Shown: positions 22,154 through 31,817 of the stretch, one piece after another | How positions within the stretch are numbered: position 1 is the stretch's first letter | How the letters are laid out: each line of letters begins with the position of its first letter | Assembly (NCBI GenBank): GCA_040217195.1 | Contig: JAVJNR010000003.1 | Span: 416,001-480,000, forward strand | Direction of reading: 5' to 3' | DNA: 64,000 bases | Source of the DNA: Leptospiraceae bacterium | GTDB taxonomy: Bacteria; Spirochaetota; Leptospiria; Leptospirales; Leptonemataceae | Program-made: the position numbers and the translations under genes | Notes under the pieces: generated by a model | The model's database searches: none | The model's input: only the letters and a program-made list of their open reading frames with translations | What the model was told of the DNA's origin: nothing

Positions 22154-23617
22154 TCAGGGAGTATTCATGCTGGCCAGGAAGTCTTCATTTGTCTTGGCCG
22201 AACGCATCTTATCCAGTAAGAGTTCCATGGCCTCGGTAGTGGACATGGGACTGAGAGCTTTTCTCAGTACGAATACTTTGCTCAGAATTTCGGGCTCTAG
22301 AAGAAGCTCTTCTTTTCTGGTTCCAGATTTATTGATATCGATGGCCGGGAAGATCCTTTTATCAGCCAGTCTACGATCCAGATGAATCTCCATGTTACCG
22401 GTGCCTTTGAATTCTTCAAAGATCACTTCATCCATTTTGGAACCTGTTTCAATTAAGGCTGTTGCAATGATTGTCAGAGATCCACCATGCTCGATATTAC
22501 GGGCAGCACCAAAGAATCGCTTTGGCTTATGCAGAGCGTTGGAGTCCACACCACCGGAGAGAATCTTACCGGAGGTAGGGATAACCTGGTTATAGGCTCG
22601 GGCCAGACGAGTAATTGAGTCCAGCAGGATAACAACATCCCTTCCATGCTCAACCTGACGTTTGGCTTTCTCGATCACCATCTCGGCTACCTGGACGTGG
22701 CGGCTGGCAGGCTCATCAAACGTGGAGCTAACCACTTCTCCATCCACATTCCGGGCCATGTCCGTAACCTCTTCCGGTCGCTCATCAATCAATAGAACAA
22801 TAAGCACAACTTCCGGGTTGTTGGTTGTTATGGCATTGGCCACATTCTGCATCAGAATTGTCTTACCCACTCGTGGAGGTGCAACGATCAATCCCCGTTG
22901 GCCTTTTCCGATAGGTGTAAATAGATCAATTATTCGGGTATCCAGTTGTCCTGGATTCCATTCCATTACCAGTCGCTCATTTGGATACAGAGGCGTCAGG
23001 TTATCGAACAATATTCGACGTCCTACCTGATCTGGAGTTTCTCCGTTAACCGTATCCACGCGGAGCATGGCGAAAAATCGCTCGCTGTCCTTTGGAGGAC
23101 GAATTTGCCCTGTAATTGTATCTCCTGTGCGAAGACCCAGGTGACGAATCTGGGAAGGACTTACATAAATGTCATCGGGTCCGGACAGATAGTTGTAGTC
23201 CGGGCTTCTCAGGAAACCGTAGCCCCCCTCCTGCATCCTTTCCAGAGTGCCGGATGCATAAACGATGCCGTTTCGCTCGGCCTGCTTTTGCAGAATCCCA
23301 AAAATCAGGTTTTGCTTTTTAAGACCTGCTGTGGTTTCCACGCCCATCTCTTCTGCGATCCGCGATAGATCTTCAATGGGCATGGCCTTGATTTCGCTCA
23401 AATCGATGGGCGGTGGTGGTGGTTCGTTGGATTTTTTCTTATTGGGACTTTTGCGGCCATTGCGACCCTCGTCCTCATCAGAAAATCCATGATCGGCATC
23501 CATCAGCGCTTCCTGTTCAAGAAGCTCTTCTGTATCCGAAGGCGAGGATTTTTTTCGTCCGTTCTCCGAAGAGTTACGGGAAGATTTTTTGCGTGAAGTT
23601 TTTCTCACGGCAGGCAT
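22154..23617 (-). CDS. rho: Transcription termination factor Rho with a charged N-terminal extension
   Basis: [50 protein letters not shown]. Confidence 0.99.
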
Positions 23618-23811
23618 ATGAACTCCTGTGGGATTGTGTCAGAGACATAATCGATGGTAGGTTTAGGTATAGCGCTGGAATAGAACGGAAAGCATCCGAA
23701 AACTCGCCCTTCTGGCGTGGTTAGATCAATCCAATGGATTACGTCTGATCTCGGGGATTTATTTGATCCGACGTTTGGCTTTTCCGCGAAGCTTAAGCCA
23801 GCGGTGCCTAT

Positions 23812-23839
23812 ATATTACTAAGGGCCCTTTCGGGGTCAA
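23812..23839 (-). promoter_or_regulatory. Putative sigma70 promoter of rho
   Basis: Minus strand TTGACC-N16-TAATAT, about 190 nt upstream of the ATG. Confidence 0.55.
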
Positions 23840-23885
23840 GAATTAAAAACAACAAAGATAAAAACGAGGGAATTGGAAATTCCCA

Positions 23886-24968
23886 TCAAAACTTGATATA
23901 AAGACGAGGATCCACCGGCTTACCGTTGCGAATCATTTCAAAATGCAGGTGAGGCCCGGTACTCATACCGGTGCTGCCGGATACTCCGATCTTCTGCCCG
24001 CCTTTCACAGTCTGACCCACTCGAACGTTGATTCGGCTTAAATGGGCATACAGGGTCTTCAGCCCGTTATCATGCTTTATAATAATAGCTCTACCATAGG
24101 AACCCATCCAGCCAGCATAGGTCACTACACCATTACGGGCCGAGCGTATGTGTGTATAGCGAGCGGCAATGTCGATTCCACCGTGAAACTGGCGGTACCG
24201 ATAAATGGGATGTATACGCCAGCCATAGCCACTGGTGGTCCTTCCCCAGACCGGTCGAAACCAGGTGGGAGGTGGTTCAGGCACTTTTGCATTTGGTAGA
24301 AAAATCGTTTCTCCGGGTTGCAACAAATCCAGGTTAGCCACATCCGGATTATCCCGACGGATATCATCCAGCTTAACGCTGTAGTACTGGGCTACTTTGG
24401 CTATTCGATCATTCTTTTTGATTTTATAGGTAAGTCCCGGACGATTGGGAATTGTTAGCTTTTGTCCCGGTCGGAGCACAGAGTTTACGCCCATTTTATT
24501 GGAACGTGCAATGAGCTTCATGGGAACCTTGAACTTTGATGAGATCTGGCTCAGGGTATCCCCATTTCTGACTGTATATTTGATTACTTTGCCGTCTTTT
24601 CCTTCCGGCTGATCTTCGGTAAGAAGCTTTTCTTTCAACGCATCCGATTTCTTCTCTAACTCTATAGGAGAGAGTTTCCCTTCCATCTTCTTCAGTTCTT
24701 CAACTTCTGTAAGATCCTGGGTGGTGGTGGCTGTGCCGGAATTGGAAAGTAGACTGAAAACGCCAAAGAATAGGACGGATAGGGCCAGAACACCCAGAGC
24801 CTGGTTTCGGATTTTGCCCAGAGCTAAATCCACTCGGCCAATTATGGGCCTGGTTTTCCCGGGAAATGAGTAGAGAAAGCTACCTCCGCCAAGATGAATC
24901 AGGGAAAAACGTCCCTGGAGCTCAAATCGGTGCTTGCTATGCCTATTTTTAAATCGGCGGTGGTGCAT
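23886..24968 (-). CDS. LysM-LysM-M23 peptidoglycan endopeptidase
   Basis: YTVRNGDTLSQI LysM; HGGID, YAHL and GPHLHFE M23 motifs; TM anchor. Confidence 0.95.
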   Translation of the reverse strand: MHHRRFKNRHSKHRFELQGRFSLIHLGGGSFLYSFPGKTRPIIGRVDLALGKIRNQALGVLALSVLFFGVFSLLSNSGTATTTQDLTEVEELKKMEGKLSPIELEKKSDALKEKLLTEDQPEGKDGKVIKYTVRNGDTLSQISSKFKVPMKLIARSNKMGVNSVLRPGQKLTIPNRPGLTYKIKKNDRIAKVAQYYSVKLDDIRRDNPDVANLDLLQPGETIFLPNAKVPEPPPTWFRPVWGRTTSGYGWRIHPIYRYRQFHGGIDIAARYTHIRSARNGVVTYAGWMGSYGRAIIIKHDNGLKTLYAHLSRINVRVGQTVKGGQKIGVSGSTGMSTGPHLHFEMIRNGKPVDPRLYIKF

Positions 24969-25006
24969 GCTATAGGATCAATCGGCCAATCAACAAAGTC
25001 CCGGCA

Positions 25007-25405
25007 TTATTTTTCCGGAGTTTTGACTGATCCGTAGGCCTCCTCTACGATTTTCTTCACATCTTTTTTCTGGCCGCCGGTGATATTCACTCGGCCCTGG
25101 GCTATGGTGCCCGGAGAAATATGCAGAATGGGAGACTCAATGTCGCCCATCATCTTGCCGGTCTTTTCCAGCCGCACTTCTTCTTCTGCCTTAATATTGC
25201 CAATCATGGTTCCGGACATAGTCACGTTTCGGGCATTGATGTTGGTCTTAACCTTTCCGGTCTCTCCAACATGGAGCTCATCTTCCGTTTTTATCTCCCC
25301 CTCGAATTTTCCGTCGATGCGAAGGGAGCCGGAGATATAAAATTTGCCCTCAAATATGGAACCGGGGCCAATTACACTGTTCAGCTGATCATTTCTGGTG
25401 GCCAT
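25007..25405 (-). CDS. Bactofilin (polymer-forming cytoskeletal protein)
   Basis: SVIGPGSIFEG, LRIDGKFEGEI, beta-helix repeats. Confidence 0.95.
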   Translation of the reverse strand: MATRNDQLNSVIGPGSIFEGKFYISGSLRIDGKFEGEIKTEDELHVGETGKVKTNINARNVTMSGTMIGNIKAEEEVRLEKTGKMMGDIESPILHISPGTIAQGRVNITGGQKKDVKKIVEEAYGSVKTPEK

Positions 25406-25544
25406 ACTGGCTCAGAGTCCCGAAGGCGGCCAATTTCCGCAATCAGATTTCAAATTTTAGGGCATTTTGGTCGCTTTTAATTGAACGAAACCGAATTTTC
25501 TGCCGTCCACTGCTCCTGGCGACCGCGCCTCCAGGCCCGAAGGA

Positions 25545-26117
25545 TTAATGGACAGCACTCGGTCCGGCCCGATGCACTACCCTCAAATAATACCAGAGGG
25601 CCAAAAAATCGTACAATCCGTGCACCAGAATGGCAACTAGAAGGTTATCGGTGTAGAGTAAACTCAGACTGAGTAGAAGTCCCATGAGTGCTGCAATGAT
25701 CCCATAAAGAGGCGTAACCCAATGCACCAGGCCAAACAGAATTGCAGTTATGGCAACGGCAGCCCAGACCCCCAGCCAGTCTGTAAGCCATAAATGAAAG
25801 AAGCCTCTAAAGAGTAGCTCTTCGCCCACCCCCGCAAGGATGGAAAGCCAGAACAAATCGCTTAAATGAAGCCCCTTGAACAGTGGTAATATGACCTGAT
25901 CCAGCTTGCTTCGAAGCAACTTCACAGAGGCCAAATTGAGTCGGGACAAAAGCAGAAACACCAAGAACATGGGAGCAATGGCGAGCAGACCTATGGAATC
26001 TATCCATCGATCCGGTTCTACATGAATCATACTCAAAGGCGGATAGTCGAATAGAAAGCCCAGCCCGATGGCCAGTAATCCCATGCCGCCTTCCACAAAA
26101 ACAGCCATGCGAAGCAT
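25545..26117 (-). CDS. CPBP family intramembrane metalloprotease
   Basis: EELLFRG, FGLVH and HGLYD motifs. Confidence 0.92.
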   Translation of the reverse strand: MLRMAVFVEGGMGLLAIGLGFLFDYPPLSMIHVEPDRWIDSIGLLAIAPMFLVFLLLSRLNLASVKLLRSKLDQVILPLFKGLHLSDLFWLSILAGVGEELLFRGFFHLWLTDWLGVWAAVAITAILFGLVHWVTPLYGIIAALMGLLLSLSLLYTDNLLVAILVHGLYDFLALWYYLRVVHRAGPSAVH

Positions 26118-26407
26118 GCTACCCTGATCTTTAAATTGCGATTGTTGTTCCGGTTCCAGATCTCTTTTCCGTTTCTTTCATGAATTGGATAGGTTCTACA
26201 GTTTGTCCGCCCCATGACAAATAGATACTAAGGACTCAGAGGGCAAAGTAAAAAAGAGATACATCCACTCTCCGAGCTTGCATTCGTTGCGAATTCATTG
26301 TCCAGTTCGATTCGCAGGCAATGACTGTGATATCCCAACAAATACTATTCAAAGAAGTGGACGCTGCCGGGGACAGAAGAAAAGCAGATTTGAGTCATAC
26401 AGAATCC

Positions 26408-26689
26408 TTACAGACACTCACCCAGTAAATAGTATCTACCTGAATTTCCAAAAACCCTGGCGGCTTCCTTCTGAAGATCCTTATCCATGGACATCATCAA
26501 CGGACGACCGTTACAGCTAAAACTGGCGGCTTCTTCAATACAACGTGAATCCACTTCCGGTCCGGCGCATTGTGTGATCACGAATTGACGATTGTTAATC
26601 ATCGCTTTACGTTGCTGCAGAGTGGGCCCGCAACTTCCCAGAAGACCAAGAACTAGCAAAATACCAGTTCCATTTAATATTAATTTCAT
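26408..26689 (-). CDS. Small Cys-rich lipoprotein
   Basis: LLGSC lipobox plus four Cys. Confidence 0.7.
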   Translation of the reverse strand: MKLILNGTGILLVLGLLGSCGPTLQQRKAMINNRQFVITQCAGPEVDSRCIEEAASFSCNGRPLMMSMDKDLQKEAARVFGNSGRYYLLGECL

Positions 26690-26815
26690 ATCAATACTTT
26701 CTGGCTGAATACAACGATGTCAATTCCTTTGAGCAGCGGAGTATTCAGTCTTTTGTGAAACTATTGGAAGATTGGAATTGCGAACAATCAGTCTGGAGGC
26801 AGGCAAAGAATTGAT

Positions 26816-28831
26816 CTACCACTGAGCTGGCAATTCAGGACGACGCAGGATGCCATCCTGGAGTGTTTTGTTCACAATCAGAATGTTTTTTCTGGCTCTG
26901 GAAGCAGCACGACTTTCAGCACGGGTCAACATCTCATTGTACAGAGCAATTGCATCGTTAAATTCATGATCCTGAATATGCAGGAAAGCCCTCCGTTCCA
27001 GAACCGTTCCAATATCCATTGAGGACAATCTAGTGCGCACATCACCCAGCCTTTCATCAACGTCTGGCTGTTCAATGTATAACAAACGATAGTATTGTCT
27101 TCGGACCTCCGGATCATCCGATGTTCGGAGCTCTTTTTTCAAGGTCAGGATTCTCTCCTTTAGATCCGTCTGTTCCTGAACAATGCGGTCCCTTTCCTGC
27201 TCCACCTGAAAATAGATCTGGCGAGCTTCATCCAGACCGGCTTTCTCTTCATTCGTTCTACGAATTTTTCGGTTTATTTCAGAGAGATGATTCTGGATGC
27301 GAAATCTGATCCTCTGTCTTTCCATTTCCAGGCGAAAATCGTCCTGTCTTGCATCAGGCACCTGTTGTAGCACCTGATTGTACAGCTCCATACTCCGTCG
27401 GTACTTTCCTGTGTGCTGAAAGTACAGTTCAGCCAGATGATACTTTGCCTGCTCATTTCTGGATAGTAAGCCTTTTCCATCCTGATCTGCTCCGGCCCGG
27501 TTCAATAGCTCTTCATAGATCTCAATGGCCTTCAGGTATCTCCGCTCATCGGTGTAAAGACCCGCAAGATTACTCATCCGAAGGTTAATTCTTTCTGGAT
27601 CAACAGAACCAGGATTCCTTTCATTTCGCTGTCTGGCCAGTTCCAGAAAGCGTTTCTCGAATTCGATGGCATAGCCTGTCTTTCTGCTTCTGGAATACTC
27701 TTCTGACAGTGCCTCCAGAAACTTTAGTCGATCTGGATCGATGCGATGAGCCAGCTCCAGAAGAATGCCGTAACCGACGAAATTAGATAGCTCCGTTCTT
27801 TCCGGAACCGTGGGTGAATCGCCGTAGAATTGAGACTTTTGAGTTAGCCGTTGATGCTGCTTATTTTCCTTTTCAATTTCTCTGGTAATCTCTGCCATTC
27901 GAAATACCAGATCGCCGCTTTTTTGTTCCCGGTCCTCTTTGTAGGCCCGGTAACTGCCTGTACGAATGGCTTCCATCCGATCAACAATGGCCTGCATCTG
28001 GTTTTCCATTTGTTGCAATCGCTGCTCTTCCGCCGCCGGGTCTGCCTGTCCCCCTCTGAGCAGTACAGATCGAGCCACAGCCGATTGCTTTCGTTGCTGA
28101 TCCAGATCTTTCTTGAGCTCCACATATTGGTCCATTAGATTACGAAATCGATTAGCATCGGCAGCCCACTGATTGTTGGGCTCCTGCTGAATGCGATCTG
28201 AGTTGGCAAATCCGTCCAGCATGGATAGATAGATCCTCTCCCGTTCTTCCGAAGTCAGGTCCCGATCTTGATCCCGTACAGGAAGAAGAGCGCTGTATGG
28301 AATTTCCACCGGATTGTAGCGAAAGGCCTGATTGTATTCCGAAAGAGCCCTTCTTAGATCCCCCTGTCTTTCGTAGCATTGTCCCAGCAATACATGTAAT
28401 CGATATAGATAGGGCGAATATCCAAGAAAATAGCGAGCTCCTGGTTCCTTCTGACGAGCCAGACGGACCAATCGCACAAGATTCACATCCCAGTGCTCGA
28501 CTCCTTCCGGTATTTGCTGTCTTTCTATCTGGATTCTTTTCTCCGCAGAAAACTGAGATGTATACCGGCTAATTTGTCGCTCAACCTCTCCGGCAAGAGC
28601 CTCAAGAGGTTCCCCGCTCTCCAGCCGATTCTCCAGAGCTTCGATGGTGGCTCGGTCAAATATTTCATGCGGTTTTTGATACAGGGAGGCCGGGTTGCCC
28701 GGATCTTCTCCAGTTAGAGGCCACAAAGGCGCTCCAAATAGAAAAAGCAATGCCAGACCGCCTCCAGGCCCAATGAGCCTTTGCAGAGCCCGGCGGATCA
28801 AGCTGGCACGATTTTTTTCTACTTTGAACAT
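26816..28831 (-). CDS. Exported TPR / coiled-coil protein
   Basis: Hydrophobic signal, TPR motifs (LLGQCYERQGDLRRALSEYNQAF), coiled coils. Confidence 0.8.
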   Translation of the reverse strand: MFKVEKNRASLIRRALQRLIGPGGGLALLFLFGAPLWPLTGEDPGNPASLYQKPHEIFDRATIEALENRLESGEPLEALAGEVERQISRYTSQFSAEKRIQIERQQIPEGVEHWDVNLVRLVRLARQKEPGARYFLGYSPYLYRLHVLLGQCYERQGDLRRALSEYNQAFRYNPVEIPYSALLPVRDQDRDLTSEERERIYLSMLDGFANSDRIQQEPNNQWAADANRFRNLMDQYVELKKDLDQQRKQSAVARSVLLRGGQADPAAEEQRLQQMENQMQAIVDRMEAIRTGSYRAYKEDREQKSGDLVFRMAEITREIEKENKQHQRLTQKSQFYGDSPTVPERTELSNFVGYGILLELAHRIDPDRLKFLEALSEEYSRSRKTGYAIEFEKRFLELARQRNERNPGSVDPERINLRMSNLAGLYTDERRYLKAIEIYEELLNRAGADQDGKGLLSRNEQAKYHLAELYFQHTGKYRRSMELYNQVLQQVPDARQDDFRLEMERQRIRFRIQNHLSEINRKIRRTNEEKAGLDEARQIYFQVEQERDRIVQEQTDLKERILTLKKELRTSDDPEVRRQYYRLLYIEQPDVDERLGDVRTRLSSMDIGTVLERRAFLHIQDHEFNDAIALYNEMLTRAESRAASRARKNILIVNKTLQDGILRRPELPAQW

Positions 28832-28952: not shown

Positions 28953-30593
28953 ATGGCGCAAATCCAGTATGAAAACTCCCAGACCATAGAGGCCGGTCCA
29001 GAAGATACAATTCTGGAAACCAGCCTGAAAAATGGCCTGGAACATATGCATGCCTGCGGTGGGAAGGCCCGTTGCTCAACCTGTCGTGTGCTGATCCTGG
29101 ACGGTCAGGAGAACCTGGAACCCAGAAATGAGCAGGAACGATCCCTGGCCAGGCGACGGGGACTGGAAAACAATGTACGCCTGGCTTGCCAGACTAAAGT
29201 CAAAGGTCCGGTTCACATTAGAAGACTGGTGCTGGACGATCAGGACTACGAATCGGTCCGGGACAGATCCGTAAGAACTACCGGTCGTGAAGAGAATGTA
29301 GCTATCCTGTTTAGCGATGTGCGAAACTTCACCAACTTTTCAGAGAAAAACCTCCCCTACGATATAATCCATCTATTGAACCGATACTTTGAAGCCATGG
29401 GAGAAGTGATTCTTTCCAACGGAGGCATTATAGATAAATACATAGGCGATGGACTGATGGCCAGTTTTGGTCTGAAAGAATCAGATCCGGTTTCAATTTG
29501 CGTTCGAGCAGTGAATGCAGGGTTGCAGATGCTGGAAAAGCTGGAAAAAGTAAATGAATATGCACGAAAACATCTGGACTATGAGCTAAAAATTGGTGTT
29601 GGAATTCATTACGGCTCCGTGGTTGTAGGCGAGCTGGGTCATCATAGCAATGCATCGTTCACTTTAATCGGGGACTCGGTAAACACCGCGGCAAGACTGG
29701 AATCCAAAACCAAACAGGCCAGAGCCCAGCTTCTGGTAAGCGAAGAAGTCTACAAAAATGTCCAGCCCTATGTGCAACGAGGCAGAGTATTTCGCGCACC
29801 ATTAAAAGGAAAGACCGGCGATTTCAAGATGTTCGAAATCGAGGCACTGGACCGAAACCGGGCCTGCGAACTGGTGGACCGGGTTTTTATGCTAACCCTG
29901 GAATCAACAGAAGTTCGAGCAAGAGGCAGCTATTTATTTCGCTTTGATCGTCCGGAGAATTTTCAATTCAAAGCAGGCCAATCCATTGAAGTTCGATTCC
30001 CCAGAGATTCAAGAACGGAAAGTCGAACCTTCTCCATCGCATCCGCCGAGCAGGATCCCTTTGTTGAAATGGTTACCAGAGATACCGGATCGGATTTTAA
30101 GAAACGGATGTTAGAAATGAAGCCTGGAGACCAGGTAATTGCTACATCTGCGGGAGGCCTTCTTACACTTCCAGAAAATCTGGAGGCTTCGCTTGTATTT
30201 CTCGCTGCAGGAATTGGTATTACCCCCCTTTACAGCATCATTCGGACTCTGCTGGCAAATAGGGAGAATGGTGCACAGGTTCCCGGAATGCTACTAATCA
30301 GTAGCAATAAGAATTATGATTCATTCCTCTTCCATAAAGAATTACTTCAGCTTTCCCAGACTCAAGGATTCTTCTATGTACCTACAGTTACCGGCGATCT
30401 TCCGGGGGACTGGAATGAAGAAGTGGGCAGAATTACCCCTGAAATGATACGTCGCCACCTGGTGGATGCGCAGAAAGCCCAGTATTTTATCGCAGGCCCC
30501 CCGGTGGCCGTTACCGATCTACGGGACACACTTACTTCCATGGGCATAGTAACTGGAAATATATTTACAGAAGAGTTCTACGGATATCAATGA
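28953..30593 (+). CDS. [2Fe-2S] ferredoxin - class III adenylyl cyclase - FAD/NAD(P)-binding FNR-like reductase fusion
   Basis: CGGKARCSTC...RLAC; LFSDVRNFT, DKYIGDGLM, FTLIGDSVNTAARLE; RTFSIAS, AAGIGITP, AGPP, EEF. Confidence 0.92.
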   Translation: MAQIQYENSQTIEAGPEDTILETSLKNGLEHMHACGGKARCSTCRVLILDGQENLEPRNEQERSLARRRGLENNVRLACQTKVKGPVHIRRLVLDDQDYESVRDRSVRTTGREENVAILFSDVRNFTNFSEKNLPYDIIHLLNRYFEAMGEVILSNGGIIDKYIGDGLMASFGLKESDPVSICVRAVNAGLQMLEKLEKVNEYARKHLDYELKIGVGIHYGSVVVGELGHHSNASFTLIGDSVNTAARLESKTKQARAQLLVSEEVYKNVQPYVQRGRVFRAPLKGKTGDFKMFEIEALDRNRACELVDRVFMLTLESTEVRARGSYLFRFDRPENFQFKAGQSIEVRFPRDSRTESRTFSIASAEQDPFVEMVTRDTGSDFKKRMLEMKPGDQVIATSAGGLLTLPENLEASLVFLAAGIGITPLYSIIRTLLANRENGAQVPGMLLISSNKNYDSFLFHKELLQLSQTQGFFYVPTVTGDLPGDWNEEVGRITPEMIRRHLVDAQKAQYFIAGPPVAVTDLRDTLTSMGIVTGNIFTEEFYGYQ

Positions 30594-30638
30594 ATCCTTA
30601 CTGGACCTCTACCAGACAGGCTATAGCCTGTCCTGCAA

Positions 30639-31817
30639 ATGATTCGGCAAACCACTGGTTCTCACATTAAGAGTCTTCTATTCAGGTTATCTAAGAGAAA
30701 TCCTCCATGGATCTCTGGCAGCTCCCAGGACCGAGGGTCTGGAATTGCAAGTTTCGGCGGAGTCAGGCCAGGTATCATTTTCACAGGAATCTGGCCGAAT
30801 CCTGTGGCACTGCCCATGGCATTCGCTCTTTCTTTCTTACTCTGTATAATGATTCTGCAGTCCACCGCTGCGCAGGCCAGCCCCGTATATTTCGAAGAGG
30901 TGGATTCCTGGCAGCCGGATACTGGGACGCAAGAGGCTATAGATAAAGCACATCAGCAAATTCGCGATGAGGCGGGACTATATGTATGCTTCATACTTGG
31001 TATGTACAACTTTGAAAATGAGCAGAAATACAGGAGTCTGGACCAGGAGCGCTGCGATGGATTTCTATTCATGCTGCCGGAGCGCATGGAGTATCATTCC
31101 AGAGATTTCGATTATGAGCATACAGGCCTGGGATTCGATGCCGCAGACGATGTCTGGGGCTCCAGTTATAAATTAAGCGAACTTGATTTTGTTCAGGATG
31201 CCAGACCCGACAATTTGCAGGCACTCCGAGTCAGGGCCTTTGCAGAACGATTAATACAGAAAAGCAATCATCCAAATTTTTACTGGCTTCGGGAGATTTA
31301 CGAAGAGGCCACAGAGGAGTATGTACTCCAGGCCTTATTAAACTATTCCATTGCCATGATCCTCGGACTGGTGCCGGTAACGATTTATCTGGTCTACAGA
31401 TTGCTTACCAGAAAGCTTTCCATTGGTTGGAAAGTGCATTTCCTGGTAGCAGTTTTATTACCATTGATTCTTCTGTTCGCTTATCTTCCGATTCTGGACA
31501 GTTTCTATGAACCATTAGAAAGCAATGCATATTCCCTGATGCCCATTCTAGGACTTGCTTACTCGTTCTGTGGATTCCTGGCCACTTTTCTGCTAGGACA
31601 AAGACTCCTGGGACTTTCAGATAAGCCTCCGTACTGGGCCATTTTCTTGATCTATTTACTGGCTCCTATTGCTCTACTAGCAGCGGGTGCAGCCAAAGGT
31701 GCCATTGCTTCGGCAGCAACCGGCGGCTCAAGTGGCAGTTCCGGAAAGGGTTCTGGAGGTGACCTTAAAGGAGGGGGAGGAACCTTTGGAGGTGGAGGCG
31801 CCAGCGGCGGATGGTAA
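30639..31817 (+). CDS. TPM/DUF477-like membrane protein with a Gly-rich tail (start possibly 30816)
   Basis: C-terminal GGGGTFGGGGASGGW hallmark, exported N-domain, four TM helices. Confidence 0.6.
   Translation: MIRQTTGSHIKSLLFRLSKRNPPWISGSSQDRGSGIASFGGVRPGIIFTGIWPNPVALPMAFALSFLLCIMILQSTAAQASPVYFEEVDSWQPDTGTQEAIDKAHQQIRDEAGLYVCFILGMYNFENEQKYRSLDQERCDGFLFMLPERMEYHSRDFDYEHTGLGFDAADDVWGSSYKLSELDFVQDARPDNLQALRVRAFAERLIQKSNHPNFYWLREIYEEATEEYVLQALLNYSIAMILGLVPVTIYLVYRLLTRKLSIGWKVHFLVAVLLPLILLFAYLPILDSFYEPLESNAYSLMPILGLAYSFCGFLATFLLGQRLLGLSDKPPYWAIFLIYLLAPIALLAAGAAKGAIASAATGGSSGSSGKGSGGDLKGGGGTFGGGGASGGW

Follow-up and report, generated by a model that had tools for sequence, protein, structure and literature searches.

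The 64,000-nucleotide stretch of DNA that was analysed (the window) contains a gene for a 546-aa protein in which a [2Fe-2S] ferredoxin domain (Fer2), a class III adenylyl cyclase and an FNR module are joined in one chain, and its sequence suggests that this protein is probably a soluble one-component sensor. If so, electrons would pass from NAD(P)H to FAD and then to the [2Fe-2S] cluster by way of the tethered FNR, and the state of the cluster would switch the synthesis of cAMP, the oxidised state likely being the ON state. In that event, the reducing power of the cell would be turned into a cAMP signal, and, to our knowledge, no cyclase is known that is regulated by an NAD(P)H-oxidising wire of its own.

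Domain architecture and conserved residues of the fusion protein

The gene is a single unbroken ORF (positions 28953–30593, forward strand), which begins with ATG and ends with TGA. An earlier note on this DNA had described it as a fusion of Fer2, class III cyclase and FNR, and this description is borne out by the Pfam domains and by superposition of the structure model. Matches above the curated cut-offs were seen in the Pfam scan for Fer2 (residues 9–84, E 1.6e-11), Guanylate_cyc (PF00211; residues 112–293, E 1.3e-25) and NAD_binding_1 (residues 416–520, E 4.6e-12), and the same scan gave no match for the FAD half of the FNR. Based on the ORF, Pfam and hydropathy results, the product of the whole gene is predicted to be soluble: the chain begins at Fer2, no membrane region was found by Pfam or hydropathy, and hydropathy exceeds 1.6 in only one 19-residue segment, which starts at residue 412 and corresponds to the GxGxTP strand-helix of the NAD domain.

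The conservation of individual residues was examined in 38 full-length members, viz. 37 clusters from the profile search and one further representative (P0004). The ferredoxin domain (residues 1–92; 28953–29228, +) is identified by Pfam, by alignment and by its best PDB match (1i7h, E 2.1e-12), and the C-x5-C-x2-C...C pattern noted for it earlier is present as C35-x5-C41-x2-C44...C79, with all four Cys found in 38/38 members. It is followed by the Fer2-to-cyclase linker helix (residues 93–110; 29229–29282, +), recognised from the alignment of the 38 members and from fold models, and this linker is 16–18 residues long in every member, with D95 and D98 invariant. In the cyclase domain (residues 111–298; 29283–29846, +), which is supported by Pfam, alignment and superposition on CyaB (3r5g), the catalytic set proposed in the earlier note is likewise in place, with D122, D166, K162, N244 and R248 found in 38/38 members and T237 in 37/38. 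From the literature on class III cyclases, we take D122 and D166 to be the metal-binding Asp residues, K162 and T237 to be ATP-selecting, and N244 and R248 to be the transition-state residues, and the placement of these residues agrees with alignments to solved cyclases. The cyclase domain also carries a Cys that is not a cluster ligand (C183; window positions 29499–29501), which is present in 38/38 members of the FNR clade, in 181 of 254 Fer2-cyclase cores and also in CyaC, and may be another site with a redox-sensing or structural role.

The cyclase is connected to the FNR by a tether of 14 residues (29847–29885, +), delimited by the alignment of the 38 members; in the relatives the tether ranges from 12 to 49 residues and is often Ala/Pro rich. 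The FNR consists of an FAD-binding barrel (residues 312–405; 29886–30167, +) with AGQ, RTFS, K383 and G402, seen from alignments and superposition, and an NAD(P)-binding domain (residues 406–546; 30168–30590, +) with AGIGITP, AGP lacking Cys and ExFxGY, seen from Pfam and alignments. The motifs RTFS (358–361), AGIGITP (419–425) and GPP (515–517) are found as the earlier note had listed them, but the EEF (540–542) that it placed at the terminus is not terminal, as YGYQ follows it. The residues K383, G402, G420, G422, T424, G515, E540, G544 and Y545 are found in 38/38 members and S361 in 37/38, and in the FAD motif F360 is replaced by Leu in 4/38. The FNR is nevertheless the least conserved of the three domains, with a mean pairwise identity of 37% versus 55% and 60% for the other two. 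Among six genes from within the genus, FNR pN values of 0.06–0.17 versus pS values of 0.62–0.79 were obtained in all 15 pairs, and dN/dS was 0.02–0.13 in 11/15 pairs, the remaining pairs being saturated; from such sequence comparisons, all three domains are under purifying selection.

In canonical FNRs, a Cys is present in the CGP motif and a Tyr in the FAD motif. However, the CGP Cys is found in 0/38 of the fused members, the protein described here having GPP/AGP without Cys, the FAD motif has Phe in place of the usual Tyr, and its R358 is replaced by His in 9/38 members. Based on these changes, one could interpret the FNR as a flavin-free or catalytically dead module that regulates allosterically through bound NAD(P)(H) or a bound partner. 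However, when the FNR half alone is used as the query, it leads to a family of stand-alone proteins of 230–260 aa (P0262–P0381; 33–40% identity), in which the FAD-motif Phe is present in 120/120, the CGP Cys in 1/120 and the terminal F-x-G-Y in 120/120 members; thus, these features are inherited and should not be interpreted as decay. Together with the strong purifying selection on the domain, this makes a dead FNR very improbable. The stand-alone proteins share RxFS, AGP without Cys and ExFxGY with the fused form, but lack Fer2 or cyclase. They form a large family carrying the automatic name 'ferredoxin-NADP reductase', and for two members tested no curated NCBIfam model was matched at its cut-off. 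Residues 480–481 are T/S-R/K in 19, T/S-E in 9 and T-G in 8 of 39 fused members (T-G in the 546-aa protein) and mostly acidic in the stand-alone relatives, and across the fused and stand-alone members these two residues allow no call between NADH and NADPH.

Structure models

The full-length AlphaFold monomer, which was built from 17 sequences, has a mean pLDDT of 82.4 and a pTM of 0.55. Its cyclase domain superposes on P. aeruginosa CyaB (3r5g) with Z 27.0 and an rmsd of 1.8 Å over 192 residues, and residues 309–545 superpose on FNR-family structures (4eh1) with Z 28.2 and an rmsd of 2.1 Å over 225 residues. When the placement of Fer2 and FNR was compared with that in BenC, T4moF and NqrF, the whole-chain rmsd was 11.6–13.3 Å, which in a monomer built from so few sequences is a weak test. 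The Fer2-cyclase core folded alone gave a pLDDT of 91.5 and a pTM of 0.71, and this model hints at packing between Fer2 and the cyclase. No solved chain with the Fer2-cyclase-FNR architecture was found in PDB sequence and structure comparisons. The linker helix lies at the position of the cyclase transducer element as described in PMC5995499, and we infer that its residues 93–110 form the allosteric link from Fer2 to the cyclase.

Fer2 is closest to the ISC/adrenodoxin-type ferredoxins. The acidic patch of soluble ferredoxins is missing from it (EQERSLARRR versus EQEDDMLD in 1i7h), neutral or basic residues taking its place; Lys or Arg occupies position 69 in 38/38 members, and the mean net charge of the domain is +0.9. 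Seven core positions are enriched in the FNR clade, and because only one of them is in Fer2, no dedicated docking face is visible.

Distribution and genuineness of the fusion

The earlier note had proposed a search for this architecture in other organisms, and the fusion is indeed found to recur. In a profile search in which the best 8000 candidates were scored, at least 37 clusters at 90% identity contained all three domains, the named ones all being from spirochaetes, and the scores show a sharp break after the three-domain clusters (from E 2.8e-209 to E 1.2e-152 at the next architecture). The whole model was matched in 17/42 genomes of the window's family, with two more copies cut by contig ends and one consisting of the FNR half only. 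Among 400 sampled genomes of the phylum, with the best three candidates per genome considered, it was matched in three, all from one genus of the sister family Leptospiraceae. Overall, the fusion is present in at least 8 genera of the window's family and one genus of Leptospiraceae, down to about 40% identity. Its named relatives are MAGs of Leptonemataceae, Leptospiraceae and Spirochaetaceae (78–84% identity, 4 loci), and the best-matching public sequencing runs are marine metagenomes.

Since the assembly behind the window is of the metagenome type, it should be considered whether the three domains were joined into one ORF by an error of assembly. In the four public runs compared, no single contig extends across the whole gene. 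However, the Fer2-cyclase junction is bridged by one contig (X4; 29136–29350) and the cyclase-FNR junction by another (X1; 29389–30800, possibly from the source sample), both without gaps or joints, and colinear whole copies occur in the genomes and clusters noted above. An assembly chimera is ruled out by these independent genomes, and we assign it virtually no probability.

The gene order around the fusion is shared only within the genus, and in every other genus examined the neighbours are unrelated, so that the gene behaves like a unit on its own. In the window, its neighbourhood comprises genes for TPR, membrane, transporter and YdjM proteins; no oxygenase or Nqr subunit genes adjoin it, NqrF being a separate gene on C4. 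The start of the cyclase gene is separated by 121 bp from a divergent gene run (22154–28831, −) encoding a TPR protein, a small lipoprotein-like ORF, a CAAX protease-like protein, bactofilin, a LysM/M23 peptidase and Rho, whose order is conserved within the genus; no sigma-70-like site was found upstream of the cyclase gene. Among the public runs listed as carrying the sequence there was no RNA run, and the one RNA run compared yielded no match. In a tblastn search of plasmid records, 0/168 matches covered 80% of the 546-aa protein.

Relationship to CyaC and to oxygenase reductases

The same tblastn search led to the annotated cyaC (SMc01818) of Sinorhizobium meliloti. CyaC is a [2Fe-2S] cyclase, which is activated after oxidation by quinones and responds reversibly to the quinone redox state (PMC10463352), and the ferredoxin-bearing 6TM class IIIb cyclases form a cluster described by Beltz et al. 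2016 (PMC4821796). Residues 3–296 of the protein studied here are identical to S. meliloti CyaC at 107/297 positions (36%, E 4e-63), with the similarity running through Fer2, linker and cyclase, and the two proteins share the four cluster Cys as well as the catalytic and substrate residues. However, CyaC has a six-helix diheme anchor with four heme His and quinone input, whereas the 546-aa protein has neither and carries instead a C-terminal FNR on a tether. By sequence, it is thus a predicted soluble relative of CyaC, and not a member of the CyaC type, as it lacks the diheme anchor. From this relationship we infer a redox-dependent cyclase activity of the 546-aa protein. The earlier statement that no characterised example is known holds, within our literature search, for the FNR form, but not for redox-regulated [2Fe-2S] cyclases, of which CyaC is one. 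No paper on the Fer2-cyclase-FNR architecture was found in that search, whose scope lay outside most subscription journals and supplementary tables of domain architectures.

The source genome also contains a full CyaC orthologue (G000:C2:389836–391554, −; L116:4837–6555), with a His-rich membrane anchor followed by Fer2 and cyclase and with 38% identity to S. meliloti CyaC over 565 residues, and 4/6 other genomes of the genus have a further core match of about this size. The source genome is therefore predicted to carry both a quinone-facing and an NAD(P)H-facing version.

The earlier note had also compared the protein with oxygenase reductases, and in this case the likeness holds for the set of domains but probably not for kinship. 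BenC, MmoC, T4moF, GcoB and NqrF combine an N-terminal [2Fe-2S] domain with FAD and NAD(P) domains in a single chain, with an FNR fold matched at Z 26–28. However, they differ from the 546-aa protein in that the latter has a 200-residue cyclase between Fer2 and FNR, an ISC/adrenodoxin-like Fer2 and an FNR half from the stand-alone family, and the NCBIfam scores are all far below their cut-offs (PaaE 77.8/420.8, NqrF 65.1/295, MmoC 61.5/500 and BenC 53.3/430). The likeness to the oxygenase reductases thus looks convergent. It is likewise unlikely that a cyclase was inserted into an oxygenase reductase, given a widespread Fer2-cyclase core with exchangeable modules and an FNR that matches a stand-alone family. 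Based on its sequence, the protein is neither a CyaC member nor an oxygenase reductase, and would work like CyaC.

Partner modules and evolutionary history of the Fer2-cyclase core

The core is not limited to the FNR form: many other bacteria have it, as do 70/75 sampled genomes of Leptospiraceae. A Pfam scan of each of the top 150 representatives in the 50% library allowed them to be classed by architecture: 44 consist of the core alone (some being fragments), 24 have a multi-pass His-rich membrane N-terminus, 17 a peroxidase, 17 a C-terminal globin, 9 an N-terminal globin, 9 an FNR, 7 a Rieske domain, 3 YceI, 2 DUF2769, and one each CDGSH, a ferric-reductase-like module and DUF4079, with unassigned extensions in the other 15. 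An FNR, peroxidase, globin, Rieske, CDGSH or ferric-reductase-like module is thus present in 61/150. In 254 cores of all architectures, each of the four Cys is kept in 253 or 254, and D122 and D166 in 251. Lys162 is replaced in 49/254 cores (by Asn in 27), mainly in the Rieske, globin and stand-alone forms, and some of these relatives may use another nucleotide as substrate. The YceI domain is C-terminal (P0032, P0050 and P0072), and the DUF2769-like one is a Cys-rich N-terminal region (P0042, P0061 and L113).

At the Leptospiraceae loci examined, the module differs by genus and the neighbourhoods differ as well, with peroxidase at loci L019, L022 and L109–L111, globin at L107 and L108, and FNR at L105 and L106. 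The peroxidase and globin forms have the same core as the 546-aa protein (about 45–56% identity for the peroxidase form) but another C-terminal module, and no studies of them were found in the literature search. In the Fer2-cyclase-peroxidase proteins, the proximal heme His is present in 38 and replaced by Arg in 8 of 58, the pattern being unmatched in 12. These Arg-for-His forms, among them L019, L022 and L110 (one Leptospiraceae genus, g22) as well as P0207, P0209 and their kin, also have the distal Arg changed to Lys; the named members with Arg are from Leptospira noguchii, weilii, kmetyi and others. The form with Arg for the proximal His is likely heme-free, and accessory modules in the family of this core can thus decay.

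In a FastTree analysis of the 254 cores, all 38 FNR-form cores form one clade (support 0.61). However, in two quick IQ-TREE runs with a subset of 67 rows, which excluded 10 near-duplicate FNR rows and included 20 of the 58 peroxidase rows chosen at random, three cores of other architectures are nested inside this clade, with one FNR row lying outside it under the mixture model; the FNR-domain tree has weak support. The support for the FNR fusion having arisen only once is thus weak. The trees place the FNR cores among the peroxidase and stand-alone core forms, and the simplest history would be that, in Leptospirales, a Fer2-cyclase core that already existed acquired at its end an FNR from the family of stand-alone proteins.

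The distribution of partners also bears on what the input to the cluster may be. It could be argued that the signal is not the level of NAD(P)H, but the occupancy of or damage to the cluster (through iron supply, NO or peroxide), with the FNR merely resetting or maintaining it. This explanation is favoured by the occurrence of the core alone in many representatives, by globin and peroxidase partners that point to gas or peroxide inputs, by the similarity of Fer2 to ISC-type ferredoxins, and by a stand-alone copy (locus L017:979–3261) that is flanked by two ferritin-family genes. However, the surroundings of the FNR form, in the window and at the loci examined, show no Fe-S assembly or iron gene, and the response of CyaC to the quinone redox state is a reversible one (PMC10463352), so that we regard a damage sensor as unlikely. 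At another locus (L030:3535–4882), a 143-aa cNMP-binding protein overlaps the start of a stand-alone Fer2-cyclase.

Proposed mechanism

Based on the above, the protein would dimerise and synthesise cAMP as do the class III cyclases with Lys/Thr, and would bind both [2Fe-2S] and FAD. The FNR would swing on its tether and reduce the cluster in either the same chain or the partner, and the redox state of the cluster would then act on the cyclase dimer through the conserved linker helix, with the oxidised state being ON by analogy with CyaC. Hence, cAMP would rise if NAD(P)H falls, or if O2 or other oxidants outrun the reductase, and the FNR, fed from the cytosolic pyridine-nucleotide pool, would be the counterpart of the CyaC diheme anchor, which is fed from the quinone pool. 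The control of cAMP by redox state gains support from the homology of the Fer2-cyclase part to CyaC and from the recurrent pairing of the core with redox modules. The fixed length of the linker is in keeping with allosteric coupling of Fer2 to the cyclase, and the variable length of the tether with a donor that can move; the conserved FNR motifs and purifying selection also count in favour of the wire.

Other observations count against it. The domains of the monomer model are poorly placed, with Fer2 not docked on the FNR; Fer2 lacks both the acidic patch and an FNR-specific surface; the FNR is the least conserved domain and shows substitutions at R358 and F360; the frequent occurrence of the core alone indicates that it needs no fused donor; and the peroxidase forms illustrate the decay of accessory modules. 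Some of these observations would also be expected if the protein were an uncoupled bifunctional fusion, in which the FNR reduces an outside acceptor (free flavin, iron or another ferredoxin), the cluster is structural and the cyclase is redox-blind. The fourfold variation in tether length, the fast divergence of the FNR, the lack of a clade-specific Fer2 surface and of docking in the monomer model, and the existence of FNRs of the same family without any cyclase are all in accordance with this explanation. However, the fusion has been kept across the genera of both families despite divergence to about 40% identity, the partners of the core are mostly cofactor-binding redox modules, and the characterised homologue CyaC is redox regulated (PMC10463352); an uncoupled fusion is therefore, in our view, quite improbable.

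Returning to the NAD(P)H-driven cluster switch, it may be a special case of a wider pattern, to which we give slightly less than even chances. The Fer2-cyclase unit would be a general electron-to-cAMP transducer, in which diheme, globin, peroxidase, Rieske and FNR modules are interchangeable inputs to one cluster switch and have been swapped between Leptospirales lineages, and the 546-aa protein would be its self-contained soluble version, which reads the NAD(P)H pool and resets itself. That redox regulation of a Fer2-cyclase is possible is known from CyaC, but in this membrane diheme protein the contribution of the cluster itself is difficult to separate. With a predicted soluble homologue of 60 kDa that carries its own putative physiological reductant, this question becomes directly testable, and the answer would bear on the whole family of cores. 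If the coupling is real, the protein would also lend itself readily as a scaffold for reporters that convert NAD(P)H into a cAMP signal.

The source genome has 28 cNMP-binding matches and 32 cyclase-like matches at E 1e-5, and the former offer possible receivers for cAMP. In Leptospira kobayashii, cAMP is described as controlling swimming within a second (PMC9043183), and by analogy the control of swimming is a possible output of the 546-aa cyclase. LA_4008, a Leptospira cyclase that has been linked to host cAMP (PMC3789758), has a different architecture and is unrelated to this protein.
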